Part shown: one piece after another, positions 1,235 to 43,134 of the stretch | Position numbering within the stretch: position 1 is the stretch's first letter | How the letters are laid out: the number at the start of each line of letters is the position of its first letter | Assembly: GCA_043816305.1 (NCBI GenBank) | Contig: JBDRHZ010000012.1 | Coordinates: forward strand, 55,701-119,700 | DNA length: 64,000 nucleotides | Reading direction: 5' to 3' | From: Patescibacteria group bacterium | GTDB lineage: Bacteria > Patescibacteriota > Dojkabacteria > JAHIVN01 | Notes under the pieces: generated by a model | Database searches by the model: none | What the model was told of the DNA's origin: nothing | Seen by the model: only the letters and a program-made list of their open reading frames with translations | Program-made: the position numbers and the translations under genes

Positions 1235-1431
1235 GATTTTTAGTTAAATCAATTATACTAAAATGCTAAATAATTATACTTTATCGACTTTCATATTTCT
1301 ATAGAATTATTGTTTTTAATATCTTTATGAAATGATAATGAATAGGGGACTTATACCCTCCGGAGGCGGTCGGGCCATTAGACGACCAACACTCATTTTT
1401 ATAAGTTCCTCCTTCAAAACCGTGACTTCAA

Positions 1432-1502
1432 TTGCCGGGCTTAGATTCGAACTAAGATTCAGCGCTTCAGAGGCGCTTGTCCTACCATTAGACGACCCGG
1501 CA
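1432..1502 (-). tRNA. tRNA-Gln (anticodon CUG)
   Basis: Reverse complement folds as a cloverleaf. Acceptor is TGCCGGG/CCCGGCA (U1-A72). D-arm is GTC-TAATGGTAG-GAC. Anticodon arm is AGCGC-CTCTGAA-GCGCT (U33, CUG, A37). T-arm is CTTAG-TTCGAAT-CTAAG. CCA is not encoded. Confidence 0.75.
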
Positions 1503-1799
1503 TTTTTTAGTGTTAGATTTTAATACACGTTACTTTCCGATTCATTATCCCGATTCGTTATACTCATCGGGACTAGGTCAGACTACGCATTTCTTTCGTG
1601 CCTCAAGAAATCCTAGTTCTGCCTTGAGGACGACCCGGCAACATTGACCCCAGGTATTTTACCAGAGAAGAGTGCAAACAGTAAATGCCCGAAATAGCAC
1701 TTCAAAACGAAGGATATCTTAATTGATAACTGGGAATTGGTCATTGTTATTTACTGCTTCCTGTTTACTGTGTATAATACAAAGATTATTAAAAGTATT

Positions 1800-2210
1800 A
1801 TGGAAAGAAAAGTAAAAGTATATACTGACGGCGGGGCAAGGGGAAACCCAGGGCCTGCTGCAGCTGGAGTTGTGATATTTGATGAAGAGGGTAGACTACT
1901 AGCCATTGACGCGAAATATCTCGGTGAGACGACAAACAATCAAGCTGAATATCAAGCACTAGAACTTGCGCTCGAACTTCTGCAAAAGAAGGACATTTCT
2001 CGAGATATCACTTGTTACTTGGACAGCGAGCTTATCGTTAAACAATTAAACGGGGAGTACAAAGTCAAAAATTCTGACATTGCTATAGTAAAGAAAAGAA
2101 TTGACTCATTGTCTGAGTTTTTTGAGAACATAGAGTTCATTCATATCAGACGTGAGGAAAATAAGTTTGCAGATAAACTCGTAAATGTTATATTGGATGC
2201 AAGGGAGTAG
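1800..2210 (+). CDS. rnhA: Ribonuclease HI
   Basis: ORF 1737..2210. Motifs VKVYTDGGARGNPGPAAAGVV...TNNQAEYQALELAL match the RNase H catalytic core (DGG...E...D). The likely start is the internal Met at 1800 (MERKVKVYTDGG). Confidence 0.85.
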   Translation: MERKVKVYTDGGARGNPGPAAAGVVIFDEEGRLLAIDAKYLGETTNNQAEYQALELALELLQKKDISRDITCYLDSELIVKQLNGEYKVKNSDIAIVKKRIDSLSEFFENIEFIHIRREENKFADKLVNVILDARE

Positions 2211-2275
2211 CTAATAGTTAATATGTAATAGCAAGTAACTATCAAGTAATTGATAGTATTATTTAAGAAATTTCC

Positions 2276-3727
2276 ATGTCGAAAACATATTCTGTAGACA
2301 TTACAGATAAAAGACAAAAAAGACGCAAAACTCTTCGAGAAAAGAAGAAGGATAAAAAACCACAAAAGGGAAAAGTTAAGGTTATTGTAACCTTACTCAT
2401 TCTGTTTGGACTTCTTGGAGGTGTCGGTTACTATTTATATAATGCAGCTTCTAAATGCGATGGGGCAAATTGCAATCCGATACTGCGTCCCATCGAAGCT
2501 ACGATTGATCCAAAACTTAAACAAGATAAAGGTCTTACGAATGTGCTTGTTGTTGGTATCGATACGAGAGAGGCTAATCCCGGTCTTATGAATACTGATA
2601 CGATAATGATCCTGACTGTTGATCATGTAAATCAGTCTGTTGTCATGACTTCGGTTCCCAGAGACCTCTGGGTTTCTTACACCCTGCCAAACGGAAATAC
2701 TACTTCCAGTAAAGTGAATAGTGCATATGCGATGGGAGAATACTTCGAAAGTGGGAAGGGAATAGAGACATTAACAGGGGTTGTTGAAATGATTATTGGG
2801 CAGCCGATACACTATTATGTAAAAGTGACTTTGTCTGGATTTGTAGAGATAGTTGATACTATAGGAGGTGTGGATATCGATATCCCGGAATATTATAAAG
2901 ACGCATACCCGAAGTCAGAGCTTCCACAATCGTATCAAGACACCTGTGCTTCATTCTTTCATGCAGGAGAGTACTGTATTTTTGAATTTCAAGAGGGGAC
3001 TGAACATATGGATGGCCAGAGAGCATTGATCTATGCCAGAAGTAGACTTCTTAGCCCCTTAGGAGATTTTGATCGTGCAAGAAGACAGCAGAGAGTCATA
3101 AGTTCTGTGAAAGATGAGGTACTCTCCAGTGATACATTACTTGATCCTGCCAAGCTCTGGGATATATATAATATCGTCAAGGATAACATCGAAACGTCAA
3201 ATTTTACCATCAACGACATACGCGCTGCTCTCAAGCTCAAGGATGAATTTGACCCCGATAATATAGGACAACTTGTACTTGATCCAAATCTTGGTTACGT
3301 TCCCAATAAATACATCTATAGACCATATGACTTCCCAGGCAGAGGCTACAACATTGAAGCTCACGACCTGACATATGCTTCGATTCAAGCATTATTTGGG
3401 GAAGTCAGGAAATATCCGCTCCTTTATAATGAAGCTCCCAAGATCTCAATTTACAATGCAACAGGTAATCCGGTACTTGCGAAAGACTGGACAAGCGAAA
3501 TCCTAAGTAAGGCATCTTTTGTACAGATCGTGGAAACGAACAAACTTATCCAGGATCCAGAAGGGAATTTATCGGGCATCAAGATTTATAAATTTACTGA
3601 TACAGAAAAACCGGGAACTGATGAATTCTTAAAGAAAGTTTTTGAAGTAGGTGAGATCACTACTGAGAACACAGAGGTGATAGAAGCTTATCGAGGAGAA
3701 GATTATGTGATTGTTGTAGGACCGTAA
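2276..3727 (+). CDS. LytR-CpsA-Psr (LCP) family cell-envelope phosphotransferase with a C-terminal extension
   Basis: N-terminal basic tail plus a TM helix, then LVVGIDTRE...NTDTIMILTVDH...SVPRDLWV, which is the LCP signature. 483 aa. Confidence 0.8.
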   Translation: MSKTYSVDITDKRQKRRKTLREKKKDKKPQKGKVKVIVTLLILFGLLGGVGYYLYNAASKCDGANCNPILRPIEATIDPKLKQDKGLTNVLVVGIDTREANPGLMNTDTIMILTVDHVNQSVVMTSVPRDLWVSYTLPNGNTTSSKVNSAYAMGEYFESGKGIETLTGVVEMIIGQPIHYYVKVTLSGFVEIVDTIGGVDIDIPEYYKDAYPKSELPQSYQDTCASFFHAGEYCIFEFQEGTEHMDGQRALIYARSRLLSPLGDFDRARRQQRVISSVKDEVLSSDTLLDPAKLWDIYNIVKDNIETSNFTINDIRAALKLKDEFDPDNIGQLVLDPNLGYVPNKYIYRPYDFPGRGYNIEAHDLTYASIQALFGEVRKYPLLYNEAPKISIYNATGNPVLAKDWTSEILSKASFVQIVETNKLIQDPEGNLSGIKIYKFTDTEKPGTDEFLKKVFEVGEITTENTEVIEAYRGEDYVIVVGP

Positions 3728-3787
3728 TCCGTATTCAGTAATCCTTAATCTCTAAGCTGTTGCTTTCAGGAGCTTTGTTTTACAAGA

Positions 3788-3806
3788 CAAGGGGTTTTAC
3801 CCCTTG
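3788..3806. terminator. Bidirectional hairpin terminator between convergent genes
   Basis: CAAGGGG-tttta-CCCCTTG stem-loop between the LCP (+) and ABC-2 (-) gene 3' ends. Confidence 0.5.
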
Positions 3807-3918
3807 CGAGGAAATGCTAATAGATTTATTCAAGGGGCTACTGTCAGAGGCGGGCAGGAAAGTCCCTAGTCCTTGATTTTATAGTTTTGTATATATACCG
3901 GCGTATCTGCTCATCGGC

Positions 3919-4734
3919 TCATGAGCTCACGGAAGAATAGCTTTTGAGTCCCAGTTTCCAGACGAGGTTGCTTCCTAGATAAAAAACAGTAGCGAGAATG
4001 ACATAGTAGCTAGTTAGCGGCCAGTCTATGTTATTGAAGAAGATGACTGAAGTCGGTACTGTTGTGACTAGAGCAACTGGGATTATGAAACTTGCGATAA
4101 ATCTTATAGCCCCTTGGTAAGCGGATGACGGGATCGACCCTGGATCATTTAATACAGTATGCAAAAATCCCCTTACCGACTCCATTCTTCCCGCCCAGAA
4201 AGCCAGCGATAATACTATGAAGAAGATTGAGTAGAATACTACCACTGAGCAAGCTGCAAGAATTAACAATTTCAAAACGAGGAGAAAAGTTATGACAATT
4301 TTCAGCTTGATGATAGATATGAAGAAAACAGCCAGTCCGAATAACGCATTGGGTATACTGGCGATATCAAATTCATTGAACGAAGCAAGAAATTTTGAAC
4401 CGATAGGTTTTGTGAGCAGTCCATCGATCTTGCCGTAGAAAATATTATCAGAAAGAGAGTTTAGGCTGATATCAAAAAGGAACCAGAAAATGTTCTGGAA
4501 TATATGAAAAAATCCCATAAACCCTATGTATTGCCAGATACTGTATCCGGCGAAGGAGTCTGAGTAACTGTAAAGAATATAGATCCATACTATACTGGCT
4601 ATCAGCCAGAGACTTATGGAGACTGTCGTGAGATAGAAGCTGGCCCGATAGGTGAGTGCTTTCTGATAAGAAAGACTTAGGAGTCTAGCTAATATTTTCC
4701 CATATTTTAGAATGTTATGCACCATACGCTTCAT
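3919..4734 (-). CDS. ABC-2 family transporter permease subunit
   Basis: 271-aa polytopic membrane protein, clear paralogue of 41302..42117. It forms an overlapping pair with the upstream permease. No ATPase is adjacent. Confidence 0.55.
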   Translation of the reverse strand: MKRMVHNILKYGKILARLLSLSYQKALTYRASFYLTTVSISLWLIASIVWIYILYSYSDSFAGYSIWQYIGFMGFFHIFQNIFWFLFDISLNSLSDNIFYGKIDGLLTKPIGSKFLASFNEFDIASIPNALFGLAVFFISIIKLKIVITFLLVLKLLILAACSVVVFYSIFFIVLSLAFWAGRMESVRGFLHTVLNDPGSIPSSAYQGAIRFIASFIIPVALVTTVPTSVIFFNNIDWPLTSYYVILATVFYLGSNLVWKLGLKSYSSVSS

Positions 4735-5503
4735 ATTTTTTGATACCGAATTTATAAAGTAATTTGAAAATAATGATTATCAATATCACCCACAAGGCCT
4801 GCATTCCGAACATAAAGGGGAGATTGATTTCGTCCGGGGTAAATATGATATCTGCTGAAAAGGCAAAGGTGTATCTATAGAAAAGTAAGTTGTTGATCCC
4901 TGCCATCCAGGCTGGCATGAGAACTACTGGGAAAACCTGTCCTGAGAGAAGCATAAATAGTATTCTATTTAGTCTGCTTATCGGATCAACATTCTGGATG
5001 AAAAATGCACACATTCCTATGATCATATCCCAGAGAGAGAAGATGGTTGCTCCCAGAATCATAGAGACAAGTAAGAACAAAAGCTGTTCAATCGAAGTGA
5101 TCGGTATTTTTAAATTGAAAACTATAAGAAGGACTATAAAAATAGGTGCGATAAGGATGAGACTTCCGAGCTTCCATCCTTGCTCGATGAAGATGTATCT
5201 CAAGATGGGATGGATAGGTTTGACTATGAAAGCGCTGATCCCGCCATCTTTGATGGAAGAGCCTAGATACTTGCTCACTGTCCCGCCTATGATGTACCAA
5301 AGGATCGCCATAACAAGAAAGTAGGTAAGAAGATCGGTCTGCTGGAAGCCGTTTATTTCCTTCTTGTCTCCATATACTGCTACCCAAGTCACATAGTTTA
5401 CAAACGCCGGGAGCAAGCCGCAGAAGAACCAAAACAGATTGTCAAATCTGTGTTCGTATTGCCGCATGAGATTTACTTTGAAAACTGCCCAGTATTTTTT
5501 CAT
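4715..5503 (-). CDS. ABC-2 family transporter permease subunit
   Basis: 262-aa polytopic membrane protein, paralogue of 42098..42892. Stop and start overlap with the 3919..4734 gene. Confidence 0.55.
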   Translation of the reverse strand: MKKYWAVFKVNLMRQYEHRFDNLFWFFCGLLPAFVNYVTWVAVYGDKKEINGFQQTDLLTYFLVMAILWYIIGGTVSKYLGSSIKDGGISAFIVKPIHPILRYIFIEQGWKLGSLILIAPIFIVLLIVFNLKIPITSIEQLLFLLVSMILGATIFSLWDMIIGMCAFFIQNVDPISRLNRILFMLLSGQVFPVVLMPAWMAGINNLLFYRYTFAFSADIIFTPDEINLPFMFGMQALWVILIIIIFKLLYKFGIKKYEAYGA

Positions 5504-5636
5504 GACTTAAGATTTTATTATATTTAAGAATTTATTAGTAGGAGAATCGAAGGACTGAAAGAATGCCCAATGATCAAATACCAATTACCAACGAACATCC
5601 AATCCTTCGACTTCTCTCAGGATAAACAACTAATAA

Positions 5637-6140
5637 CTACTCCTTTATATAAAGATAATTATTATCCAAGACCTTTTCATATTTCCAGCTTGGGAATTTG
5701 AAAATGTGGAGAATGATCTTGGATCTAGGGGTGGTTCTATTTTGCAATTTCTTTTCCAGTGATTTCATTATGCCCTTGACGGGATAAGAGGTGATGATGC
5801 TGTACTTTGGGAAATCAATGTTCCAAAGGCTTCTCCAATGTATAAATGCCTTGTTTCTTAGTCCTGCTTTGCGTATTTTCATTTTTGAAATTAGAACAAG
5901 TATTGGATTGATTTCATATCCGTGCGACTCAATACCTTTCTTTGCAAATTCGATGACAATTCTTCCATCGCCGGAGCCCAGATCTACGACCTTGTCACCT
6001 TGTTTTGCTTCAGATAACTTGAGCAGTGCTTTGAGTCTTTTCTTGTCGATTGGCAGGTATGGAGCTCCCTTGATAACAGGAGCGGCTACGATAAAAAATA
6101 CAGGAACTAAAATAATTAGTAAGATCAAGACTTTTTCCAT
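5637..6140 (-). CDS. Membrane-anchored class I SAM-dependent methyltransferase
   Basis: N-terminal TM helix, then VVDLGSGDGRIVIEFAK (motif I GxGxG) and YEINP. 167 aa. Confidence 0.6.
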   Translation of the reverse strand: MEKVLILLIILVPVFFIVAAPVIKGAPYLPIDKKRLKALLKLSEAKQGDKVVDLGSGDGRIVIEFAKKGIESHGYEINPILVLISKMKIRKAGLRNKAFIHWRSLWNIDFPKYSIITSYPVKGIMKSLEKKLQNRTTPRSKIILHIFKFPSWKYEKVLDNNYLYIKE

Positions 6141-6406
6141 AACAATAGGATTATATTGGCTGGGGTGGGGGAAGTAAAGGGATTTTGTTTAGTAGGCAAA
6201 GAGCGGGACATACGGGTCTGGAACCCCACGTTCCAAGAATATTATACAAGAAATGAGACATTTGGGACAGCATAAAAAAAGTGAAATATAGATGTCACAG
6301 ATAGCAATATCTTATCCTATAGTTTGCCTACTAACTTTTCCTTCCCAACGAAAATTGATTCTATAGCTTTCTCATAAAATTATCTCCACTTTTTTAGAAT
6401 AACTCC

Positions 6407-7318
6407 TTAATCTCTTGTCTTATCAACTTCAGTACGTAAAACATCATGAATAGGAACTCTCCTTCTTATAAGTCTACATTCAAAATCTGTAATTTCAAGC
6501 CCTTTTTTTTCTGCCTGAAGCAAAATACCAGCTACATGCACTGTATGACAAATACAGGCAATTGTAGAAGCACTTTCACCTAAAATAGATCTAAGCATAA
6601 AAGCCTCGCGTCTATCATAGTCCCATGCAAGTTCACTGCTTAATTTATCAGACCAGTCTATAAGATCATCCGAAAATACCTCTGCATAATCCCATTTTTC
6701 GAAAATTTCTTTTATTACTCTGACAATCTCTTGCCTTTGTTCTTCATTTGCATGATTCCAACCTAAATCCATCTGTAATTCTCTTACAACTTCTCCTGCC
6801 ATCCCTCGTCCAATCATTTGGGCGTATTCTATAGGATTTCCCATTATATCCATTGTTGCAGCAAAAATGTGTTTATCTTGGGGAACATTTAGTTTAGCAT
6901 ATTGAAGTTCAGAATCAACTACAGAACCAACGCAGCGTACTCTATCTTCTTCTAACCACCCAGGGGAATCTCCCTCTATGAGTAGAGTTACACCCTCCGG
7001 GAGTTTTCTAAGAAACTCATCGATTAGATTAGTTTCATAGGGATGTGGACTAGCTCTAAAGATTCTTTCCCCATCTACAAATCTCAGACTGTACAGAGTC
7101 ATATGCTGAGTACCTAGCATTGAAACTCTTTTACCATTAATCATAAAAGAAACTTCTATGTGAAAATAATGACCAACCATCCTTTCAAAGTTAACTCCAG
7201 CAGCAGAGAAACTAGCATCTTCCCTTAATCTATGAGCAACCTTAAAAGGAGTACCCTTATAATCATCTTGTTCTGTATCGTCTAAAAGTATATCTAGTTG
7301 ATCTTTTTCTTCCTCCAT
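6407..7318 (-). CDS. Hypothetical protein (acidic N-terminus), function unknown
   Basis: 303-aa ORF immediately left of repeat A. No recognisable motif. Confidence 0.4.
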   Translation of the reverse strand: MEEEKDQLDILLDDTEQDDYKGTPFKVAHRLREDASFSAAGVNFERMVGHYFHIEVSFMINGKRVSMLGTQHMTLYSLRFVDGERIFRASPHPYETNLIDEFLRKLPEGVTLLIEGDSPGWLEEDRVRCVGSVVDSELQYAKLNVPQDKHIFAATMDIMGNPIEYAQMIGRGMAGEVVRELQMDLGWNHANEEQRQEIVRVIKEIFEKWDYAEVFSDDLIDWSDKLSSELAWDYDRREAFMLRSILGESASTIACICHTVHVAGILLQAEKKGLEITDFECRLIRRRVPIHDVLRTEVDKTRD

Positions 7319-7483
7319 GTTCCGATATTTTTGTTAAATGATAAAGATATTTTAACATAGGGAGAATTGAGATCGCAATTAAATTTACACCCACACCACC
7401 TCCCCATCCCCATCAACAAAGTGCCATCTCTGTCTCCTTTTACCTTTTCTGGGATGAACTTTGGGGAAATTCTTACACAAAGA

Positions 7484-7517
7484 AACTGGCGGGGTGCGTG
7501 GGACAAGGCTCGAACTT
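7484..7517. repeat. Direct repeat A (34 bp), att-like, identical to 9764..9797
   Basis: AACTGGCGGGGTGCGTGGGACAAGGCTCGAACTT is identical at both loci. The reverse complement contains a tRNA-like T-loop, GTTCGAGCC. Confidence 0.8.
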
Positions 7518-7654
7518 GGTTTGATTTACATCCGACATTTGAGTTAAGTTTACCAAATTTGTCATTTGATTTGGAAAAGAAGGATTTAATTCTTCTAGCA
7601 GAGTTTTAAGTTATTGATTCAGTCTTACAGTAAACAAGCTGGTATAATCTTTGC

Positions 7655-8410
7655 ATGAGCATACGAATAAAACGGTTCTACGATAAAATACCAAACTATG
7701 ACAAAAGCAAAATCGACAACGACTTTGATAATATAGATGATCTGCTAATAAGACTTGAAGGTTCTATAGATAATAAAGATATTAAAATAGTACACCAACC
7801 TATTGAAGACGCTTTTAAATCAAGGCTAACAATTATTTTATATCAAAATAACTTAAGAGCTTTCTATTTACTTACCGGAATAGTTACAGAGTTAAACGCA
7901 GATAATTTACCAGCCGCTTTGCCATTAATTAGAGCATTTTACGAGTTGATGATACAACTAGGTTATTTGTGCAGTCAGATCTTAAATCATAACGATTTGA
8001 ATTACTTGCTTTCAGAACTATTTCATAAGGTATTTTTAGGAAATCGAAATGAGGGTGCTGGCGTACTCGCTTTAGGCAAAGTAGAAACTATCAGTATTAT
8101 GACGATGCTTAGCCATGCTGAGAAAGTATTTAATTCTATTGATCCTGAAGGTACTAAAGATAAGCAAATACTAACAAACTACTATGCAGATCTATCAAAC
8201 AAGTGTCATCCCAACTTTAATAGCAATATGTTCTTTACCAGTCTTGATGAAAAAGGAGAACTATTAGGATTAGATGATATTGGAGAAAATATGAGCTCTG
8301 TCAAAGCACTTGTTTATCATGAATATATGAGTCCTCTTCTGAGTGCAATAGATCATTACAAGTTGTATATGGACAAAATAAATGCTGATCCAAAAGTCGT
8401 AACTACTTAA
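7655..8410 (+). CDS. Hypothetical protein (islet cargo)
   Basis: 251-aa ORF between repeats A and B. No recognisable catalytic motif. Confidence 0.45.
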   Translation: MSIRIKRFYDKIPNYDKSKIDNDFDNIDDLLIRLEGSIDNKDIKIVHQPIEDAFKSRLTIILYQNNLRAFYLLTGIVTELNADNLPAALPLIRAFYELMIQLGYLCSQILNHNDLNYLLSELFHKVFLGNRNEGAGVLALGKVETISIMTMLSHAEKVFNSIDPEGTKDKQILTNYYADLSNKCHPNFNSNMFFTSLDEKGELLGLDDIGENMSSVKALVYHEYMSPLLSAIDHYKLYMDKINADPKVVTT

Positions 8411-9401
8411 CGATCTGATAAATAACTCTAAAGATTGCAGTTGATACAAAGCTGAAGTATTTCGAATATTCATCATCACCAATACCATCAGTTATATCGT
8501 GTGATGTGAGATTTCGCAGAGCATAACTCACCCAAAAACTCATCACCATTCCAGAGGTATTTGAATTCTCCGATACAAACCCAGCGACATCCTTCATAGA
8601 AGATACATTATTTGTTTTGTCAAAAAAGTCTGTTTGTATATTGGCGTTTTTTGGTAGAAAATTTTTACCAAAAGTACTACTCATCTTATTGTTAAAGGCT
8701 TCACCTATATTATTTATTTCTGGAAATAATATCCTACAAAGACTCTCAAAAATCAGACTTCCTTCTCTCAAATGTGATTGGAGGAGATTTGCAGAACTTC
8801 CTGTATTAATACACAGTTGTGAGATAACTGAGTACTCTGAGTATTGAGAGAGCCAATACGCAAGTGTAATTATTAAACTAACATTTTTATTATTCCACGA
8901 AGTAGTAATTTTTTCTACGATATTTTTCCAGTAATCTACATAATCCATTCCTAAAGAAATGCCAGTATTATCTTCAAATTTTTTGAATAACTCTTTCACA
9001 GGCTCTTTCAGTTTCTTGTATAGTCTAGTTGCAGTTCCAGAATCAGATTGTAAAGTTAGTAATTTATATGCAGGATTATTTTTGAAAGTTGCTTTATCTT
9101 TACGTCTGTCTTCTTCAATTGCCATCGATAAAAATAGCATCGCTTTATGAAAACTCCCAATATCTCCTTGAAGCCATGCCATTAAGTAATATGGTGTACC
9201 TTTATGTGCGAGATTATAGGTGGCAATGTCAAATTTCCGTACCTTATTGAGAATATCTAAATATCCAATATACCTAGCATAACTCTGATCTTTGACAGGG
9301 ATTGAATTACCAGGTCCAAACTTTTCAAAGAACTTATCCCACTTCTGTGGATCAGATATACCTTTTAGAGCTTGAAGCTCTTTTTGTAATTGGTCATTCA
9401 T
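8403..9401 (-). CDS. Hypothetical protein (islet cargo)
   Basis: 332-aa ORF convergent with 7655..8410, 3' ends overlapping by 8 nt. No recognisable motif. Confidence 0.45.
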   Translation of the reverse strand: MNDQLQKELQALKGISDPQKWDKFFEKFGPGNSIPVKDQSYARYIGYLDILNKVRKFDIATYNLAHKGTPYYLMAWLQGDIGSFHKAMLFLSMAIEEDRRKDKATFKNNPAYKLLTLQSDSGTATRLYKKLKEPVKELFKKFEDNTGISLGMDYVDYWKNIVEKITTSWNNKNVSLIITLAYWLSQYSEYSVISQLCINTGSSANLLQSHLREGSLIFESLCRILFPEINNIGEAFNNKMSSTFGKNFLPKNANIQTDFFDKTNNVSSMKDVAGFVSENSNTSGMVMSFWVSYALRNLTSHDITDGIGDDEYSKYFSFVSTAIFRVIYQIVK

Positions 9402-9445
9402 AAACAGAATTATACTATATCAATATAAATTATTAACATCTATCC

Positions 9446-9703
9446 ATGACTCTAACTCCTTTCGAATGGCCCCAATATCATCTAGACCGAGTACGTAAAG
9501 TTTTTGAGCCTCGCTACGGTGAAAAACTCTCCGATGAAAGAGTAATAAATATTGCCAACAACCTCTATGGATACGCAGTTGTATGCTATGACTCATGGAA
9601 AAAGAGAATTAAAAAAGAAGAGGATGAGATTCGAACCAGGAAAAGAAATGGTGGACAAGAATTTCCACATACAGAAGAAGGTCAGGATAAATTACGAAAT
9701 TAA
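9446..9703 (+). CDS. Small protein, paralogue of the element gene 37362..37565
   Basis: Shares RKVFEPRY..KL.EE.V..IA.NL..YA.VC with the 67-aa protein inside the large element. Confidence 0.5.
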   Translation: MTLTPFEWPQYHLDRVRKVFEPRYGEKLSDERVINIANNLYGYAVVCYDSWKKRIKKEEDEIRTRKRNGGQEFPHTEEGQDKLRN

Positions 9704-9756
9704 TAAAAGGTTCGAGTCGAACCGAAGAAGCTTGCTAATTAGGGGAAATTTCGAGC

Positions 9757-9797
9757 CAGTACCAACTGGCGGGGTGCGTGGGACAAGGCTCGAACTT
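9757..9797. repeat. Hybrid direct repeat B (att-like junction)
   Basis: The left 16 bp (9757..9772, CAGTACCAACTGGCGG) is identical to 40051..40066 next to tRNA-Ser. The right 34 bp (9764..9797) is identical to repeat A. Confidence 0.8.
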
Positions 9798-10045
9798 TTT
9801 TCCTTACTCACCCTCTAACAAGGATATATATTCCCGAACTTTCTTTCAAGTTTAATTTACCTGCTAATTTAGATTTAAATTGTTAAAATAACCATTATGA
9901 TCTACAAAAAAGGAAAGGGTGCGAGAGTTTACTACAACACCGGTTTTAGGAATTATGGATGTCTGATATCATTACTTATTCTTCCTATCCAGCTTATCAT
10001 CCTTGTACTAATGAAAATGATAAGAAGGTCATAAGACAAACTGGG

Positions 10046-10281: not shown

Positions 10282-13200
10282 TTATTCTTCGTCTAATATT
10301 TGATCTTTTTCTCTTCGTATTTCTCTAAGTACATGTTGATGAATATCAGTGAAAAATCTTTTCGCTGGAGATTCAGGGGCAATATTTGCAAGGACTTCGG
10401 CAGATTTATCACGCATTTCGATATCCTGAGGAAATGGTTCTCCTACCGTTCCTGATCTCCCACCTGAGATCAACGTGCTTCCTAAAGAGGATCTTACTGA
10501 GTTAAAACACTCTGACCCCTGAAAATAAGCACGTTCTAATATTTTTATGATAAATCCAATATTATTCCAAATAAAACTTGCTGGTGCTTCTGATATAAGT
10601 GAAGCTGCATATTTAATTTTGTCAGCTGAACCAGATTCTATCCATTCATTTAGAATTTTCATGACAGTGCCATTAAACTCGTTTGCTACCATAGAAAACA
10701 AATCCTTCCCGAAATGGATATGCTCCCATTTTTTTAGATCAGAGTAAACCCAGTCCCTTAGTTGTCTCAATATATCCTCATACTCTTTAGTTTCATGAAA
10801 TCTAAACTTTGTTTCTTTCTCATGCCTGAAAGGCAAAGGATCGTATTCTTTATTTGTTGATTTCTCAGTTTTATCAATACGTTTTTTCAAGAATTCAATA
10901 GTTTCAGTTGGATATTGAAAGGAGATCTCATTAAGATAATTTTCAATATAGTACCCATCAATAGAAGGGCAATCAAGAAGCATATTATTAATTTTTTCAA
11001 TATCCTTTACTGATAAGTCGTGTATTTTGAAAGCCCCATGTTGGTTAAACTCACTTAAAACCTCTTCTGCTATTTGAGATGATCCTTCAAACTTTATATT
11101 CAATGCCAATTGCAGTGCAATTAGTTTATCTACTTCAGCTAACCTGCTAAGTGAATGAACGCTAGATAATCGAACTGTTTTATCTGGAGAATTTAGTAAC
11201 TCAGTAAGCACTGATTTATTTTTTTCTTCAGCAATCTCGTTGCCAAACAGTCCCCAACTGAAAGAAGATGCTAGCTGTCTTTGTAGCGCTATGTTTCCTA
11301 ACTTGAGAGTTTTTCGTGCTATTTCTAAGGCTTTTTCTTTCTCAAACTTTTGTAGATAAGTAATTACTGTACTAAGGAAATTGCTGAGAACAGAGGTAGG
11401 GTTCTCCATAATAAAGTCCCCTAGCTCTCCGCCAAATTGTGGAGATAATCTAATAAGGCTACTCATGAAATGAGCCTGAATACCGTTCTGTTTGGAGATC
11501 GTAATAATTTGGGATACCCTTTCTTCAAGAAAAAGAATAAGATCAGAGTTCGAATATTTTTTTAGAGTTTTCTTAGCTGTAAGATCTATCCATTCACTCC
11601 ATCGTTCTTCTCTTTCCTTATAGGAGAGTTGCTCTTCCTCAAATGATCTGCCCCATCCATCCATTAAAGCTCTAACTATGTCTAATCCAAGGCTTTGAGG
11701 TATAGCATCTAGTACTTGTTGTGAGTGTTCCTTAGCCTTTGTTTTACCGTGCTTTGCCTGCCAAACTACAGCTTGTATTATTTCAACTAGTAAGATTGGA
11801 TCAAGGTTATTTTTTTCAACTATTTGTTTAAGTTTTATTAGAACTTCAATTATCCTTTTCTCCCATTCTTTAATTAGTTTTCCTCCTACTACAGCACCAA
11901 ACATGCCTCTTGGATAGCTTGTAGCTGCTGTAATTGTTTGAATTGCTCGACTGGCATAATGTAAATTATCTCCAATAAGGTAGTGAAATGCTAAATCAAT
12001 TGCTTTTTCCCTAAATAGATCTACCTGCGTAGGGGAAACAAAATATGGTCTCATTGTAAACTTGTTGTCATGAAACTCAGTAATATCAGTTTCCGTTGCT
12101 AAAACATGATCGATTACTTCAAATGCGGGAAGTCCGTATTCAGGATCTTTAGTCCATTCAATTGCCAGATTTAATATTCGCTCTGTGTATATCAGGGGTT
12201 TTCTTGGTTTTATTTCTATTAAGTCACTTAGTATCCTCATAGGATGCTCCGGATATTGATTTTGTCGCCTCTTATCAGTTTGGGCAAGTTTCCATAATAA
12301 ATTACATGCATCAATTAAATAATCAAGATTGTAAGCTATATCTTGTAATATTTCGGGAAGCTTATGTGTTACATAGTCGTAGGTAACATTATCTGACCAT
12401 CTAGGATCTAAACCAGACTTTCTTGTAGGATTATCTATAGCAAATCTTACTAGAGTAAGCATCCTTTCGGGTTGGAAATAGGCAATATCTTTAATCATTT
12501 CAAGTATCTCTTTTCTCTGCCAAATACCAGCATTTTTAAACTCATCCATAACTATCAACCACACTTCATCAAGAAGAGTAGTTCTCAATCCCTTCCCATT
12601 CTCATAGACCAGACGCCAGTCGAGTTGACTTAAATTCTTAAGTAAATTACTGGCTAATTTCCCTTTTGCAATTTTATACACCCTGTCAGCAAAACCTGTG
12701 GATTTTTGTTCATTTGAATTGAAGCAGGCTACTTCTCTAATATAATCAGCTAGAAGATCAGGGACTATTCTAAGCTGTTGGCCACGTCTTAAGAGGATAC
12801 CAGCATCTTCGAGTAATCTGATCTTACTATCAATAAGAACTTTGTCTTCTCTAAGTAATTCTTTCGTAATTTCAGAGAAACTTTCATCAGATTGTATTAC
12901 TGGTTGAATTAAAGTAATTAAATCCAAGAGTTTTTTAATCTGAGGTTTTTCAGTTGCATCACCTATTTCTGCTGTGACAACATCTTTAAACCTAGATAGC
13001 ATGAGTCGCCGAAATGACTTGGAATTATTTAATGTTGCAGGTAGAATAACCTCTTTACTGAGGACTTTGGCTGCAATTACTGTAATTAACGGACAATCTT
13101 TACTTAATTTAGCTATAGTTATAGCCAAGTCCTCAGGGCCATTATTTTCTCTCAGTACCTCCTTAGCAAGTATTTCTGCTTCTTTTTTAGTTAAACTTTC

Positions 13201-14394
13201 GATGTTTAGAATAAGCTCTTCACCTGTAGCAATTGCTGATGAAAATATACTTGCCTTTATTTTTTCTAAACCATATGGTCTCGTTGATAGCATAAGCTTA
13301 CATTTCAATCCTTGATGTACTATTCCATTTATAAGTACATTCAGATCATCTCTATCATGTGCATCATCTGCTATCAAAATAGTATTTTCTGGTATTCCTT
13401 CTAAATCTTTTGGTTCTATCTCAATACCTAATGACGCAAAAAATATGTGGGAAAAATTCGACTTTACTTCAGTATCGTTTGTAATTTCTCTTAAAATTTT
13501 AGTTTTTCCTATTCCTCCACGACCACTTATAATCGCAACTATTTGATCGCTTTTTAAATATTCTTTTAGTTTGCCTATTTCTTTGGTTCTTCCGACTAAA
13601 TTCCAGTCTTGGGTAAAAAATGAATCTACTCCAGGTAAACTATTAAAGTAATTTTCTGGTTTTACCCATGGTCCAGGTTTTGGTTCCCCAAGAAAGTCCA
13701 TACGTTGATTTGGAAAATACGCATCGATTATTCTTAATCTTTCTGGTCGAGGTAATCTTCTGATATCATCAGAAATGTCAACTAAATCTCGTAAATGCCA
13801 ACTCGATCCATGTTTTGTAATAGCTTCATCTTCCTTTGCGGTTGCTTCTTTCGTCAGAAGAATGAATTGATCAGTTATTTTAAAATTGGTTTTTTCTATT
13901 ATCTTTGAGAAATCGGCTTTCTGTACTGCATTGTCGATTTTTTGTGGTCCAAACTTGCTATTATATTCAACACGTTTACATTGGAAAGTTTTAATACTTT
14001 TGTCTGGAAATTTTGCATATATATCAATCCCATACTGTTTATCTCCATGTCTACCGAAAATACGAACATCGGTGGCTTCTGGGTATAAGGATTTGATTAG
14101 GTCTAAACAAAACTTTTCGAATTTTGCTGGTGGCAGGTTATAAAGTGGTAAAGTGTCTGTTAATAGCCTTTCGGGTGACGGTACTAATCGTCCTGATAGT
14201 TTATACAATTCATCTAATGAAACCTCTGGGAATAAAGCATGGAGTTTAGCTAAGTCCACTTCCTTTGGTCGAGAAGTTCCAGCTTCCCATCTACTTATAC
14301 TTTGTTGTTTAATTTCTAACTGTCTTGCTAGATCACTTTGTCTCCAACCTTTTTTCTCTCTTAATTCTTTTATTTTTTCTGATATTCTATACAT
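10282..14394 (-). CDS. Avs-like antiviral STAND NTPase: XRE-HTH, Mrr-type PD-(D/E)xK nuclease, P-loop NTPase and long helical-repeat C-terminal domain
   Basis: 1370 aa. Residues 1-65 are an XRE HTH (KKGWRQSDLARQLEIKQQSISRWEAG). Next comes an Mrr_cat-like region (FEKFCLDLIKSLYP...GDKQYGIDIYAKF...TFQCKRV). Walker A is VAIISGRGGIGKTKI and Walker B is ILIADDAHD. About 900 aa of helical repeats follow. Confidence 0.7.
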   Translation of the reverse strand: MYRISEKIKELREKKGWRQSDLARQLEIKQQSISRWEAGTSRPKEVDLAKLHALFPEVSLDELYKLSGRLVPSPERLLTDTLPLYNLPPAKFEKFCLDLIKSLYPEATDVRIFGRHGDKQYGIDIYAKFPDKSIKTFQCKRVEYNSKFGPQKIDNAVQKADFSKIIEKTNFKITDQFILLTKEATAKEDEAITKHGSSWHLRDLVDISDDIRRLPRPERLRIIDAYFPNQRMDFLGEPKPGPWVKPENYFNSLPGVDSFFTQDWNLVGRTKEIGKLKEYLKSDQIVAIISGRGGIGKTKILREITNDTEVKSNFSHIFFASLGIEIEPKDLEGIPENTILIADDAHDRDDLNVLINGIVHQGLKCKLMLSTRPYGLEKIKASIFSSAIATGEELILNIESLTKKEAEILAKEVLRENNGPEDLAITIAKLSKDCPLITVIAAKVLSKEVILPATLNNSKSFRRLMLSRFKDVVTAEIGDATEKPQIKKLLDLITLIQPVIQSDESFSEITKELLREDKVLIDSKIRLLEDAGILLRRGQQLRIVPDLLADYIREVACFNSNEQKSTGFADRVYKIAKGKLASNLLKNLSQLDWRLVYENGKGLRTTLLDEVWLIVMDEFKNAGIWQRKEILEMIKDIAYFQPERMLTLVRFAIDNPTRKSGLDPRWSDNVTYDYVTHKLPEILQDIAYNLDYLIDACNLLWKLAQTDKRRQNQYPEHPMRILSDLIEIKPRKPLIYTERILNLAIEWTKDPEYGLPAFEVIDHVLATETDITEFHDNKFTMRPYFVSPTQVDLFREKAIDLAFHYLIGDNLHYASRAIQTITAATSYPRGMFGAVVGGKLIKEWEKRIIEVLIKLKQIVEKNNLDPILLVEIIQAVVWQAKHGKTKAKEHSQQVLDAIPQSLGLDIVRALMDGWGRSFEEEQLSYKEREERWSEWIDLTAKKTLKKYSNSDLILFLEERVSQIITISKQNGIQAHFMSSLIRLSPQFGGELGDFIMENPTSVLSNFLSTVITYLQKFEKEKALEIARKTLKLGNIALQRQLASSFSWGLFGNEIAEEKNKSVLTELLNSPDKTVRLSSVHSLSRLAEVDKLIALQLALNIKFEGSSQIAEEVLSEFNQHGAFKIHDLSVKDIEKINNMLLDCPSIDGYYIENYLNEISFQYPTETIEFLKKRIDKTEKSTNKEYDPLPFRHEKETKFRFHETKEYEDILRQLRDWVYSDLKKWEHIHFGKDLFSMVANEFNGTVMKILNEWIESGSADKIKYAASLISEAPASFIWNNIGFIIKILERAYFQGSECFNSVRSSLGSTLISGGRSGTVGEPFPQDIEMRDKSAEVLANIAPESPAKRFFTDIHQHVLREIRREKDQILDEE

Positions 14395-14398
14395 ATCT

Positions 14399-14421
14399 CA
14401 CATTATACACATTTAATGTGT
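14399..14421. promoter_or_regulatory. CACATT-repeat palindrome (ACACATT-T-AATGTGT) plus an extended -10 just upstream of the Avs-like start
   Basis: Two direct CACATT copies and one inverted copy. On the coding strand TGTATAAT lies 7 nt upstream of the ATG, suggesting a leaderless transcript. Plausible operator for the N-terminal HTH. Confidence 0.45.
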
Positions 14422-14624
14422 GCGATGCAAGGAAGGAATGAAAAAGATGGTGATTTTCAGCAATAACTCAGTAATAATTCTGGAGGATTATTAGTTTCCC
14501 AAGATAACAGAGTACCTGTCGGATATTGTCTTATAAGTGAAGCTATTAAATTCTTAGCATTATTTCGTTTCCGAACATATTCACGTTGAAATGCAGGAAC
14601 AAATAATTGATAATTTAGAATTAA

Positions 14625-15440
14625 TTATTCCTTTCTAAGTATTAGGCAATAATGATGAATAATGTTACTTACCCAAGCATGAGGATATCCATATGGTGCT
14701 AACCCCACTTTGTCTTGAGCCCAAATTTTTTCATCTTTCAATACATAAAGTGTTCCTAACCTTTTAGCTAAATCCCAAGCCAATGGATATAATTTTCCCT
14801 CTTTCTTAACATTTTTGATAATTACCGTGATATAACCCTTTGGCTTCAAAATCTTGTAAATTTGCTCATATATTTTATACAGTTCATCGAGGAACTGTTC
14901 ATAATCATCAATATTTCCCAAATCTTTTTCATCTTTTGAATATTTTACATCTAGATCATCTTTTTCTCTTTTATTCTTAAAGTCTTTAGTACTCCTGTTT
15001 AATACATTCCAGTAAGGTGGTGATGATATACAGTAGTCAATTGTTGGTAAATCCAACTCATTAATATTCATTGAATTTCCCACTATTATTTTTTGGGTTG
15101 TTCTCTTTTTTGCTATTTCTGTATATTTGGGGTTAAGCTCGATTCCAATTCCTTTTCTGTTAGTTCTATCGCAAGCGACTAAAGTACTCCCAATACCTAC
15201 AAAAGGATCAAGAACAACTTGACCTTCTTTTGTAAAGAACTTTACAAAGCTTTCAATCATGGTTGAAGAATAAGTAGCTGGATGTTCTTTTGATTTACCA
15301 TTTGTCAGATCCCTCTCTTCTTTCAAGTCTTTCGGAAGGGCATTAAAAATAAAAAAACTACTCAAAAACTTTACCCATTCAGTTCCATTCAAATCGTTAA
15401 GAGTATTAACCATTTTTCTTTTTTTTGTAATTTTGTCCAT
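14625..15440 (-). CDS. DNA methyltransferase, N6-adenine/N4-cytosine type
   Basis: EHPATY...VLDPFVGIGST...GIELNP (HPxxxP + FxGxG module) followed by SSPPYW (motif IV). 271 aa. Confidence 0.7.
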   Translation of the reverse strand: MDKITKKRKMVNTLNDLNGTEWVKFLSSFFIFNALPKDLKEERDLTNGKSKEHPATYSSTMIESFVKFFTKEGQVVLDPFVGIGSTLVACDRTNRKGIGIELNPKYTEIAKKRTTQKIIVGNSMNINELDLPTIDYCISSPPYWNVLNRSTKDFKNKREKDDLDVKYSKDEKDLGNIDDYEQFLDELYKIYEQIYKILKPKGYITVIIKNVKKEGKLYPLAWDLAKRLGTLYVLKDEKIWAQDKVGLAPYGYPHAWVSNIIHHYCLILRKE

Positions 15441-15444
15441 ATAA

Positions 15445-16488
15445 TTATATTTTTATAGATATTGAATTATTTAATAAACCCTCTTCAATTATTTTTACTG
15501 CATAATCCCTTTTAGACCTTTCAACATTTAAATCAATATTTTTGTAAGTTGTTCGTAATTCTTTCTCAAATGAAGGGTTAAGACCAACCAATTCATCTAC
15601 AGTAATAATATTCCAACTTTTATCTGAGACTAGTATTTTCCACTCTTTATCATGATTCCGTGAATTATTTATCCTATTAAATTCTTCTCGTTCCAAGAAT
15701 GGAAATAAATAAAGAAACTTCTCCTTTTGTAAATCAATATTAGATTTTAATAGTAAATATTTTGATACCAAAGCCTCTCCAACAACTATATGTCCCATTC
15801 TAAAACTTGAATCTGTGAAATTCTTATACCTTGGCCCTCTTATTTTGACCCATCCATATTTTGTTTTTATTAAATCTCTTGATTCTAAATATAATTTCCA
15901 GTCTCCATTATAAGGGGGTGCAAGAAAAAAGCGGTTAAATGTTTTAAGCATTTTATTTTCTATCTGCTTGATAATCTCTTTTAGGTCAGTGGTATTTTCA
16001 TAACATTTGACAAGTTTCTTTATGTCAGATAATTCATCCGTTATCAGGTATCTAATGCAAGGATCTTGACTATGTTCCTCAGACGCGCTTAATGCAGCAG
16101 CCATTAAATCATGTCTAATTTCATGTTGGCCTTTTTTTAAATAGTAGATTGATAGAATATTATTAAGTAAGGCACCGTAGGCATGGTGAAACCTTTGTAG
16201 TTGAGCGTTACCCCAGGATCTGGTATTTAAACAATGTGACCCTTCTATTACAATTTTTGGAGAAGAATTAACAATTTGTTGAGTAAAAGGATCAAACCAT
16301 TCCTCATCAGCGAACCATGCAAAATCATTTGAACCATAAACAACTCCATTGATTCCAAAGCTGAGTCCACCTTCAGCCCAAATATCTTGATCATGATTGC
16401 TGCTACCAATATATACACGACGCTTGAGGGTATCAGTATTCCCTATACTTGAGAGCTCTCTTTTTATAATATCATCGGTTTTTGACAT
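15445..16488 (-). CDS. Hypothetical protein inside the R-M operon (candidate restriction-endonuclease subunit)
   Basis: 347-aa ORF, translationally coupled to both neighbours. No assignable motif. Confidence 0.35.
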   Translation of the reverse strand: MSKTDDIIKRELSSIGNTDTLKRRVYIGSSNHDQDIWAEGGLSFGINGVVYGSNDFAWFADEEWFDPFTQQIVNSSPKIVIEGSHCLNTRSWGNAQLQRFHHAYGALLNNILSIYYLKKGQHEIRHDLMAAALSASEEHSQDPCIRYLITDELSDIKKLVKCYENTTDLKEIIKQIENKMLKTFNRFFLAPPYNGDWKLYLESRDLIKTKYGWVKIRGPRYKNFTDSSFRMGHIVVGEALVSKYLLLKSNIDLQKEKFLYLFPFLEREEFNRINNSRNHDKEWKILVSDKSWNIITVDELVGLNPSFEKELRTTYKNIDLNVERSKRDYAVKIIEEGLLNNSISIKI

Positions 16489-19530: not shown

Positions 19531-19535
19531 TGCTT

Positions 19536-43067: not shown

Positions 43068-43134
43068 ATATTGCTTTGTTACTTCCTCTGTCCTTGTAAT
43101 TAAAAAAATAAGAAGATAACATCAAGGTAATGCT

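Follow-up and report, generated by a model that had tools for sequence, protein, structure and literature searches.

In staphylococci, SCC composites (SCCmec, the ccr-less pseudo-SCC and ACME) at the 3' end of orfX/rlmH are built of elements with large serine recombinases (LSRs) arranged in tandem; their units are separated by short direct repeats, and some of them are without recombinase genes. Where tyrosine recombinases are concerned, the accretion of a decayed or non-autonomous island in tandem with an ICE is a well-known arrangement. Cis-mobilizable elements (CIMEs) lie beside ICESt1 and ICESt3 in Streptococcus thermophilus, and tandem arrays of this kind have been reviewed (PMC5704250). 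PLE satellites keep their own LSR and borrow the directionality factor of their helper (PMC9638900), and iOriT genomic islands are described as being without relaxases and MPF systems and as mimicking oriT (bioRxiv 10.64898/2026.01.13.699239). For LSRs, the published rule places the zinc-ribbon motif at positions 16-24 in attP and at 11-19 in attB, and canonical LSRs do not recombine attP with attR (PMC3783163). A 2014 survey knew of no serine integrases with tRNA genes as targets (PMC4383910), and the T4SS clusters of Patescibacteria have been argued to be mostly non-conjugative for want of relaxases (PMC12102498).

The locus described here is an island of the familiar 'piggy-back' kind in which the type of enzyme and the host are unusual: the recombinase is an LSR aimed at tRNA 3' ends, and the host belongs to the Patescibacteria. 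All coordinates are positions in the window, that is, the whole stretch of 64,000 nt that was analysed. The reading we favour, and regard as reasonably probable, is that 7484-9772 is a CIME-type, integrase-less islet accreted with an LSR ICE at the 3' end of tRNA-Ser(GGA). The elements and their junctions are as follows.

7484 to 9772, no strand: the islet, 2.29 kb, integrase-less, bounded by site A and the ICE-free junction.
7484 to 7517, forward strand: site A, the left junction of the islet (attL-type), 34 bp identical to site B, with a homologous left end in the related islet L042.
7484-7492: the 9-bp overlap of site A, AACTGGCGG.
7493-7517: the 25-bp attP-type right half-site (P' arm) of site A.
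9739 to 9772, forward strand: the islet right arm (P-type left half-site plus overlap), conserved in five lineages.
9746 to 9798, no strand: site B, the attP-like P-P' junction of islet and ICE, an imperfect dyad.
9757 to 9772, forward strand: the left copy of the 16-bp direct repeat flanking the ICE, where the ICE-free allele breaks.
9773 to 40066, no strand: the ICE, 30,294 bp, with a T4SS, a relaxase-like gene, an LSR, a LexA-like repressor and defence-like cargo.
40051 to 40066, forward strand: the right copy of the 16-bp direct repeat (attR).
40061 to 40150, reverse strand: tRNA-Ser(GGA), the 3' half of which is a B'-type half-site.

As in CIME accretion, the islet is without integration or transfer genes, its att sites are related to those of the ICE, and the ICE sits in the att site on the side of the target gene, in the order attL, islet, hybrid site, ICE, attR; in CIME accretion excision may take the whole tandem or only the ICE. 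Classic CIMEs depend on tyrosine recombinases and long identical cores, whereas the recombinase here is an LSR with a 2-bp crossover and asymmetric half-sites, so that the internal site is attP-like and the target of the ICE attR-like. Also unlike classic CIMEs, the islet has retained a small, conserved gene linked to LSRs and is found, always recombinase-less, in five lineages of a different phylum. With the SCC composites the locus shares the stacking of LSR elements in tandem, the short direct repeats and a recombinase-less unit. It differs from them in that the LSR is not a Ccr, the target is tRNA-Ser and not rlmH (orfX), there is one recombinase gene and no ccrAB pair, and the partner is a T4SS-bearing ICE. 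The preliminary description, which had read the locus as two elements with related ends in tandem at the tRNA-Ser 3' end, was right in this respect.

The relation between the two elements can be read from an ICE-free allele. Contig JAHIVN010000136.1 is otherwise 99.96-100% identical to the window (100% to 1-9772 and 99.96% to 40040-49997), is without the ICE and joins 9772 straight to 40067, its junction reading ...CAGTACCAACTGGCGG followed directly by AGAGACAGGG; the same junction occurs in an independent Logan contig. The T4SS/LSR element has therefore inserted exactly between the islet and tRNA-Ser. This allele identifies the islet as the resident partner and the ICE as the variable one; the islet persists unchanged where the ICE is absent. 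Besides the presence/absence polymorphism, the 16-bp repeats and the LSR, 9773-40066 carries a conjugation gene set (a VirB4-like TraG P-loop/AAA_10 protein, a T4SS pilin, a coupling-protein-like ATPase, a Replic_Relax protein and an M23 hydrolase); it is classed as an ICE with transfer read from these genes. When p303, His_Phos, p332 and p85 were looked up as exact proteins, the ICE-free contig and short Logan contigs were the only matches; no excised islet, composite circle or islet-free allele was among them. Homology of p303 to p332 or to a 272-aa protein of L023, which would have meant a third islet, was considered and dropped, as there was no BLASTP match.

The window lies on a metagenome-assembled contig and site B is seen only in that contig, as might be expected if the islet/ICE join were a chimera formed via short repeats during assembly. 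Such an artefact is exceedingly improbable: two other assemblies contain site A and the entire islet without a single base change, the contig names (k141) imply k-mers longer than the repeats (16 and 34 bp), and the junctions at both ends of the ICE have LSR site geometry and agree with those of ICE relatives from other genomes.

The repeats on which the preliminary description was built are exact and non-random, with two copies each. The 34-mer AACTGGCGGGGTGCGTGGGACAAGGCTCGAACTT occurs at 7484-7517 and 9764-9797, has no third copy in the window at up to 3 mismatches and found matches in 0 of 100 shuffles. The 16-mer CAGTACCAACTGGCGG occurs at 9757-9772 and 40051-40066, with 0 copies expected by chance; its second copy is made up of the last 6 nt of tRNA-Ser(GGA) and 10 nt downstream. 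The 34 bp had been taken for the first DNA inside each element. For B this is proven by the element-free allele (9772 joined to 40067), but the first 9 of the 34 bp are an overlap common to all three junctions, and the last 25 bp alone are element arm. Past the 34 bp, A and B are at most 67% similar, and that only at a 52-bp offset. Site A is thus composed of the left flank, the 9-bp overlap and the 25-bp attP-type half-site P'. Site B is P of the islet, GG and P' of the ICE, an attP-like dyad (AAATTTCGAGCC ... GGCTCGAACTTT, centre 9772) with arms of 12 nt that are 92% complementary and 29 nt apart; its earlier interpretation as a hybrid junction stands, with one arm from the islet, one from the ICE and the break of the ICE-free allele within it. 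In that allele the islet right arm directly adjoins the tRNA. It matches the P-type arm of the ICE at 31/40 positions with 2 gaps, including 16 identical bp. The P' arm had 0 matches in IMG/VR.

Repeats oriented as the tRNA 3' end and starting with its last 6 nt could be displaced tRNA 3' ends, left by tyrosine-integrase integration or by tRNA duplication as in a classical tDNA island, and the 34-mer is indeed loosely like the tRNA 3' half (15/20 over the first 20 nt). This origin is very unlikely, because just 9 bp (A) or 16 bp (B) are common with the tRNA region, 10 of the 16 lie outside the tRNA, and the T-arm-like motif has shifted by 5 bp. Neither ARAGORN nor Rfam gathering scans identify a tRNA, tRNA fragment or other RNA at A or B. 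Among the scanned ICE ORFs of at least 90 aa and the islet ORFs there is no tyrosine recombinase, only the LSR; since the recombinase is of the large serine type, the repeats are not the displaced tRNA fragment of tyrosine-integrase islands.

The LSR gene lies at the right end of the ICE, together with two further genes that matter here.

37362 to 37565, reverse strand: a 67-aa ORF (p67), the p85 paralogue of the ICE, close to the start of a leftward operon that leads into the conjugation genes.
37957 to 38628, forward strand: an HTH + S24 peptidase (LexA/CI-like) repressor, directly upstream of the LSR gene and overlapping its start.
38612 to 40204, forward strand: the LSR gene, the ORF of which crosses the crossover into the tRNA gene.

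The LSR has the Resolvase, Recombinase and Zn_ribbon_recom domains (PF00239, PF07508 and PF13408, at 66, 45 and 44.6 bits, respectively), all above gathering cut-offs. Its best NCBIfam matches, XisF and CcrB/A/C, are far under the family cut-offs (CcrB 87 bits against 900, CcrA 57 against 700, CcrC 54 against 900). When integrated, the protein has 530 aa; in the modelled excised form it has 522 aa, with another C-terminal tail. A conserved recombinase tail encoded to the right of A and B was also considered and rejected: the peptide similarity (F..HP......P.LSF) is weak, about 41% of the nucleotides are identical and a stop codon interrupts the L042 copy. Relatives of the LSR that are 84-87% identical likewise adjoin tRNA-Ser(TGA/CGA/GGA), and no relative was found in IMG/VR.

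The right half-sites have the attP/attB geometry of LSRs, with a common GG, the predicted crossover dinucleotide (9771-9772), and a dyad in B. Counted from GG (9771-72; 40065-66), GGCTCGAAC is found at 16-24 in P' and the T-arm motif GATTCGAAC at 11-19 in the tRNA arm, 5 bp nearer the crossover. TCGAAC spans positions 19-24 of P' and 14-19 of the tRNA arm; P' differs from the tRNA arm by 5 additional bp that separate its inner region from TCGAAC. In their length of ~50 bp, partial dyad, central dinucleotide and 5-bp shift the sites are like those of Listeria LI/A118, Bxb1 and phiC31 (PMC3783163). They depart from that paradigm in that the target is a tRNA 3' end, where the universal T-arm supplies the attB motif, the integrase ORF crosses the crossover, and the left arms are offset by 1-2 bp from perfect symmetry. 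The left side thus agrees with the rule in part, the left arm of the ICE target being P-type and not B-type. The ICE sits in an attR-like site, made up of a P-type left arm and the tRNA arm; since canonical LSRs do not pair attP with attR, a non-canonical pairing must be assumed.

The islet itself had been described as having two genes; we found three ORFs (251, 332 and 85 aa), besides two conserved non-coding features.

7487 to 7602, forward strand: the conserved non-coding left end, which matches that of the L042 islet at 94/116 positions.
7655 to 8410, forward strand: a 251-aa ORF (p251), variable cargo, with a sub-threshold DUF5677 match only.
8403 to 9401, reverse strand: a 332-aa ORF (p332), an all-alpha protein with no family match.
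9446 to 9703, forward strand: an 85-aa ORF (p85), the islet-type family member.
9709 to 9723, no strand: the 7-1-7 palindrome GGTTCGA-G-TCGAACC, just past the p85 stop codon.

Scans of the three proteins against Pfam, NCBIfam, PHROGs and PADLOC gave no match to a recombinase, relaxase or T4SS, and no function above threshold. The L042 islet has no p251; its left end is followed directly by p332. The AF2 model of p332 (pLDDT 83, pTM 0.83) is all helical and had no Foldseek match in the PDB with E < 0.9; a TPR/RRNPP-like fold was rejected, the top Foldseek matches having a TM of ~0.19. The palindrome is kept in the islets of L018, L023, L033 and L042, has no second copy in the window and gave no oriT-like match with the ICE.

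The homology of p85 and p67 proposed in the preliminary description is upheld by alignment (22/41 identities including the RKVFEPRY motif, composition-adjusted BLASTP E 3e-15). They belong to a family of small proteins with 336 representatives, and p67 has orthologues in the ICE relatives L005 and L006. Labelling p85 as cargo does not suit the family, which sits 1-4 genes upstream of LSR genes and co-directional with them in independent elements (L034, L036, L038 and L040). The p67 and LSR genes of the ICE are divergent and not co-directional, and in the islet p85 is oriented toward the right arm, where relatives carry the LSR. A two-helix hairpin is predicted for p85 (AF2, pLDDT 81). The model had no PDB match with E < 0.9 in Foldseek, and no similarity to known directionality factors, named families or solved structures was detected; there is a sub-threshold match to the finger domain of DNA polymerase III alpha. 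A metagenome scan with the p85 alignment gave 2 loci, by a single weak peptide pattern. Its linkage to LSR genes and the two-helix model make p85 a candidate directionality factor or regulator working with the LSR. Known RDFs have no common fold (PMC11795197).

The combination of p85 and the right arm adjoins tRNA-Ser in four further Patescibacteria lineages with different flanks and isoacceptors, and none of these modules has an LSR beside it. In two of the four, p332 is also present, with amino acid identities of 84% (L018) and 79% (L042). The dN/dS values (0.12 for p332, 0.16 for p85 and 0.07 for its first 66 codons) indicate that both genes are under purifying selection. The module is 84% identical in nucleotide sequence over 1358 bp, while the tRNA-Ser(GGA) genes of the two hosts agree at only 62/90 positions and its flanks are unrelated, which is sequence-based evidence of horizontal spread. 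Between the islet and L042, the left non-coding end is identical at 94/116 positions, against 54/87 at the 4-fold sites of p332 in the same pair; the right-end non-coding stretches (50/65 and 47/62) are not clearly above the identity of the 4-fold sites. The left 25-bp half-site of the islet matches the co-resident ICE at 25/25 positions and its own orthologue in L042 at 21/25. No left end homologous to A was found in the L018 and L023 islets (within 9-10 kb, word size 9), and stop codons or frameshifts interrupt p85 and p332 in L042, so that some copies are decaying. At L024 a different element occupies the same crossover, beside an islet-type arm.

Several of these observations also fit an inert relic, an older sibling that lost its recombinase and transfer genes, is now immobile and persists for host benefit only, the 34-bp identity being due to shared ancestry or to local gene conversion between tandem ends. 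The islet has no recombinase or transfer gene of its own, the exact-protein look-ups found neither an excised form nor an islet-free allele, the islet is unchanged when the ICE is absent, p85 and p332 are broken in L042, L018 and L023 are without a recognizable left end, and integration followed by decay and accretion is the standard origin of such tandems (PMC5704250). We think this a possible but rather unlikely history. Under neutrality, 34 identical bp next to DNA of at most 67% similarity would be very improbable (0.67^34, about 1e-6), P' of the islet is closer to the co-resident ICE than to its own orthologue, and the left end is more conserved than 4-fold sites. Moreover, the module has moved between distant hosts with an LSR in no copy seen, and independent decay would not yield an LSR-less architecture common to five lineages. 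The earlier term 'decayed remnant' thus sits poorly with the LSR-less recurrence in four lineages, the purifying selection, the 84% module identity and the ICE-matched half-site; a maintained, horizontally spreading, non-autonomous element fits better than a passively decaying sibling.

On the preferred reading of an accreted, CIME-type islet, the islet would descend from an LSR element of the same superfamily, from which it would have kept the LSR-linked p85; a search for an intact, LSR-bearing relative of the islet type found none among the seven closest homologues. It would have lost the recombinase but kept LSR-competent ends matched to the neighbouring ICE, which would allow it to be excised, carried and re-integrated with the ICE or by the ICE LSR in trans. 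Recombination of A with attR would give a circle of islet plus ICE, whereas recombination of B with attR would release the ICE alone and leave the observed ICE-free allele; p85 could serve as a directionality or regulatory cofactor in these reactions. Judged from sequence, the islet probably still depends on the LSR of the ICE and is not merely a decayed remnant. It resembles what is outlined for iOriT islands and PLE satellites in being a small integrative element with partial mobility machinery, a co-resident helper and short cis-acting sequences in common with it, and would be the converse of PLE in that it encodes a candidate cofactor and has matching att half-sites but lacks a recombinase.

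More tentatively, these islets may form a family of minimal 'att-plus-cofactor' hitchers in Patescibacteria, made up of LSR half-sites, p85 and variable cargo and riding ICEs between distant hosts, an extension that we find doubtful at present. Such hitchers would have half-sites tuned to the co-resident tRNA-Ser ICE and encode no recombinase, relaxase or T4SS; p85 would be the islet's own directionality or recruitment factor, and incoming LSR elements would use the P-type right arm as a landing pad. Given the strict directionality of serine integrases, an ICE beside a P-type arm raises the question of how an attR-like target is tolerated and how the tandem is unstacked. The landing-pad role, if true, would mean that these LSRs recombine attP with an attR-like site. 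The natural attP, attB, attL and attR, with the candidate cofactor family, could be used for in vitro tests of a new LSR system. For the Patescibacteria (CPR), the locus places a T4SS cluster in a demonstrably insertable 30-kb element that has a Replic_Relax gene and a small hitchhiker adjoining it.

Exact-protein look-ups of the islet genes retrieved a 43,090-bp contig, JAHIVN010000136.1 (GCA_018816645.1; k141_1603332 in ENA), that carries these genes and is 100% identical to window positions 1-9772 and 99.96% identical to 40040-49997, everything between being absent. Its ICE-free junction reads ...GGGGAAATTTCGAGCCAGTACCAACTGGCGG/AGAGACAGGGATTCGAACC..., and the same junction is present in a Logan contig from SRR6514274. 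Since both contigs lack it, the 30,294-bp ICE is a discrete insertion, which establishes directly the tandem anatomy and the exact ICE boundaries; it has on both sides the 16-mer CAGTACCAACTGGCGG (exactly two copies, 9757-9772 and 40051-40066, none being expected). The window has a low GC content (about 30-44%) and its nearest public relatives are Patescibacteria/Saccharibacteria MAGs.

Features of the islet-ICE tandem (window positions)
7484-7517, junction A, left end of the islet
7484-9772, islet, 2.29 kb
9446-9703, plus strand, p85 gene
9764-9797, junction B, between islet and ICE
9773-40066, ICE
10282-19178, minus strand, defence-like cargo in the left third of the ICE
37362-37565, minus strand, p67 gene, ICE paralogue of p85
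38612-40204, plus strand, large serine recombinase (LSR) gene with Resolvase, Recombinase and Zn_ribbon_recom domains
40051-40066, attR
40061-40150, minus strand, tRNA-Ser(GGA) gene, its 3′ end overlapped by the second 16-mer copy
Regulator in the ICE, from domain content: LexA/CI-like HTH-S24 repressor
Conjugation genes in the ICE: T4SS pilin (PF18895), VirB4-like ATPase, coupling-protein-like ATPase, Replic_Relax protein, M23 hydrolase
Other genes in the ICE: 1384-aa surface protein, two DNA methylases, HTH-STAND NTPase

In three other MAGs, recombinases 84-87% identical to that of the ICE adjoin tRNA-Ser(TGA), (CGA) and (GGA), their coding sequence extending up to the tRNA 3′ end. In the window, the LSR reading frame crosses the crossover and reads through the tRNA-Ser gene to give 530 aa. 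Modelling of the excised form gives 522 aa, the last ~37 residues being supplied by the ICE left end, so that integration would swap the C-terminal tail. On a Saccharibacteria contig with an ICE relative (L005), a second serine recombinase (13379-14431, minus strand; 31% identical) adjoins another tRNA-Ser, (CGA), in the opposite orientation (12871-12961), so that within 3 kb two tRNA-Ser genes each have an LSR element. The left third of our ICE encodes a 1370-aa HTH-STAND/NB-ARC NTPase that has HEAT repeats and weak LmuA/RmrA-type PADLOC matches, as well as two N6/N4 DNA methylases and two ORFs without annotation. Two paralogous ABC2_membrane_6 permease gene pairs, 262+271 aa on the left and 271+264 aa on the right, bracket the whole tRNA-Ser/islet region (window 4715-5503 and 41302-42117, both on the minus strand, taken with their neighbours in locus L003), an arrangement that points to a duplicated operon on either side of the hotspot.

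The 34-mer AACTGGCGGGGTGCGTGGGACAAGGCTCGAACTT is likewise present in exactly two copies, at A and B, with no third match in the window at ≤3 mismatches and 0/100 in shuffles; the two repeats of the preliminary description are thus both exact and non-random. When A, B, attR and the ICE-free junction are aligned, the 34 bp resolve into a 9-bp overlap common to all four (AACTGGCGG) and a 25-bp arm, P′ (GGTGCGTGGGACAAGGCTCGAACTT). The inner region of P′ is similar to the tRNA arm (GGTGCGTGGGA[CAAGG]CTCGAAC versus AGAGACAGGGA[-----]TTCGAAC), and its TCGAAC motif lies exactly 5 bp farther from the crossover, at 16-24 as against 11-19 counted from the shared GG (9771-72, 40065-66). B forms an imperfect dyad about position 9772, its arms AAATTTCGAGCC and GGCTCGAACTTT being 29 nt apart. 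This LSR-type geometry is seen directly, and because of the 5-bp shift and the dyad we identify the repeat, from its sequence, as an LSR attP-type half-site plus overlap. A displaced tRNA fragment was rejected on the same geometry, and none was called by ARAGORN or Rfam. B, described earlier as a hybrid junction, is indeed one: it joins P of the islet to P′ of the ICE, as tandem site-specific integration predicts.

The 9-mer GGGGAAATT occurs left of A (7463-7471) and in the islet right arm (9742-9750), at nearly equal distances from the overlap (within 1 bp); the left flank of A may itself be the relic of a P-type arm from an even older element, to which the 303-aa gene at 6407-7318 may also have belonged. 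Immediately before the overlap at A lies CACAAAGAAA (7476-7485), which also precedes the overlap in locus L042, from an unrelated host (about 10863-10900, reverse strand, with a 14-bp indel); the match could be fortuitous, the DNA being A-rich, or the sequence could belong to the mobile unit. The half-site motif of A and B, GGCTCGAAC, has a third exact copy at 39971-39979, within the LSR gene 3′ end and about 90 bp ahead of the crossover (three copies versus 0.12 expected). This copy is kept in three ICE relatives (L005:11357, L006:11345, L007:130) and could reflect coding constraint (VGSNF) or an accessory binding site.

The islet contains three ORFs, of 251 aa (plus), 332 aa (minus) and 85 aa (plus), without a recombinase, relaxase, T4SS or defence-system match. 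The model of p332, the 332-aa product, is confidently all-alpha and gave no structural match, while p85 is predicted to be a two-helix hairpin. The likeness of p85 to p67 noted previously held on alignment (22/41 identities, E 3e-15). Both are members of a small-protein family (about 50-120 aa; motif W..L..VRKVFEPRYKR.L(T/S)D.EV..IA.NL) with 70 members in a word-indexed search and 336 cluster representatives in an exhaustive one. In four independent contexts a family gene lies 1-4 genes upstream of an LSR gene, co-directionally (L034, 572-aa LSR; L036, 496 aa; L040, 498 aa; L038, LSR cut by the contig end), and the LSR ORFs of L034 and L036 run into tRNA-Gln. In the ICE, as in its relatives L005 and L006, p67 sits within a leftward gene block diverging from the repressor-LSR pair. 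Given this linkage to LSR genes, p85 is a core gene and not cargo, and p85/p67 are candidate LSR cofactors (RDF, that is, directionality factor, or regulator). The p85 gene points at the islet right arm, the position of the LSR in relatives, an orientation that would fit loss of an LSR from the islet ancestor.

The p85 homologues nearest in sequence (61-73% identity to p85 by BLASTP, versus 54% for the ICE's own p67) all adjoin tRNA-Ser. They share a conserved non-coding tail, in which the palindrome GGTTCGAnTCGAACC precedes TTAGGGGAAATTTCGAGC.CGTAC.

Islet-type loci in other genomes
L018-L022: tRNA-Ser(GGA), with a p332 homologue (84% aa identity)
L023/L026/L027/L032: tRNA-Ser(CGA), the neighbour being an unrelated 272-aa protein
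L033: tRNA-Ser(GCT), about 250 bp away
L042: tRNA-Ser(TGA)

An LSR is absent from the retrieved DNA of all these loci, and the intact, integrase-bearing islet envisaged in the preliminary description was not found among them. L042 retains the left end TGGCGGAGTGCGCGGGACAAAGTTCGAACTTGGTTTGATTT..., which matches window 7487-7602 at 94/116 positions and directly follows p332, so that p251, the 251-aa ORF, is additional cargo of the window copy. L024 equals L023 except for a different element inserted immediately after TGGCGG, identifying the islet/tRNA junction as a recurrent landing site. That element (10324-20246) carries HD_4, Maf, PTPS, GTP cyclohydrolase I, NUDIX and TPR genes, with no recombinase seen, and its P′-like arm GACATACGGGTCTGGAACCCTTTCC has only a loose likeness to that of the ICE. 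In L033 (2670-3330) the p85 gene, palindrome and right arm stop short of the tRNA; the intervening DNA, with neither tRNA nor recognisable arm, may be a further small remnant.

The right-hand core of the islet (p85 gene plus right arm) is therefore conserved and spread. Over 1358 bp, the p332-p85-arm module of the window is 84% identical in nucleotides to that of L018, whereas the tRNA-Ser(GGA) genes of the two hosts are only 62/90 identical and their flanks share nothing, which argues for horizontal transfer of the module. Between these copies dN/dS is 0.12 for p332 and 0.16 for p85 (0.07 over its first 66 codons). Identity at 4-fold degenerate sites is 64/93 (window-L018) and 54/87 (window-L042). 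The non-coding left end, at 94/116, exceeds it (z-test about 3, p about 0.003), while the right end (50/65 and 47/62) shows no clear excess. Islet P′ matches the co-resident ICE P′ at 25/25 positions and its L042 orthologue at 21/25; past the 34 bp, similarity between the flanks of A and B reaches 67% at most, and this at an offset of 52 bp. Of the earlier reading of two sibling elements, the tandem arrangement, related ends and related gene stand, but 'decayed two-gene cargo remnant' does not, given three ORFs, an LSR-linked p85 and these dN/dS values. Counting against maintenance, in L042 p85 is interrupted by stop codons and p332 is broken, a left end resembling A was not found in L018 or L023, and exact-protein look-ups recovered no excised form or islet-free allele; that the islet is an inert relic nevertheless seems to us rather unlikely.

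On balance we favour the islet being a hitcher resembling a cis-mobilizable element (CIME). The LSR of the ICE, probably with a directionality factor, would recombine A with attR and excise islet and ICE as a single circle, whose attP, P(ICE)-GG-P′(islet), could not be told from that of the ICE itself within the 25-bp half-site. Once this circle had been transferred and had integrated at a tRNA-Ser gene, recombination of B with attR would free only the ICE; the islet would stay next to the tRNA, an outcome matching the ICE-free allele observed. However, the motif of the islet right arm is in P-type register (15′-23′), making the ICE target attR-like and B attP-like. Canonical serine integrases recombine attP with attB and, when an RDF is present, attL with attR, but no other pair (PMC3783163); a non-canonical pairing would thus be needed for the ICE to be gained or lost next to the islet.

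Conjugative transfer of CIME-ICE tandems is documented (PMC5704250), and the present pair is an accretion of this known kind in a new, LSR version. It differs in having an LSR and no tyrosine recombinase, a tRNA gene as target, an islet that retains an LSR-linked small gene, and a recombinase-less lineage in several Patescibacteria. The nearest LSR-based analogue is the staphylococcal SCC composite islands, although the recombinase here is not a Ccr. A 2025 survey (PMC12102498) found relaxases to be missing from most T4SS clusters of Patescibacteria and judged these clusters unlikely to be conjugative. In contrast, the T4SS cluster described here lies inside an insertable element with a Replic_Relax gene and, with its clean presence/absence polymorphism, looks like a counter-example.
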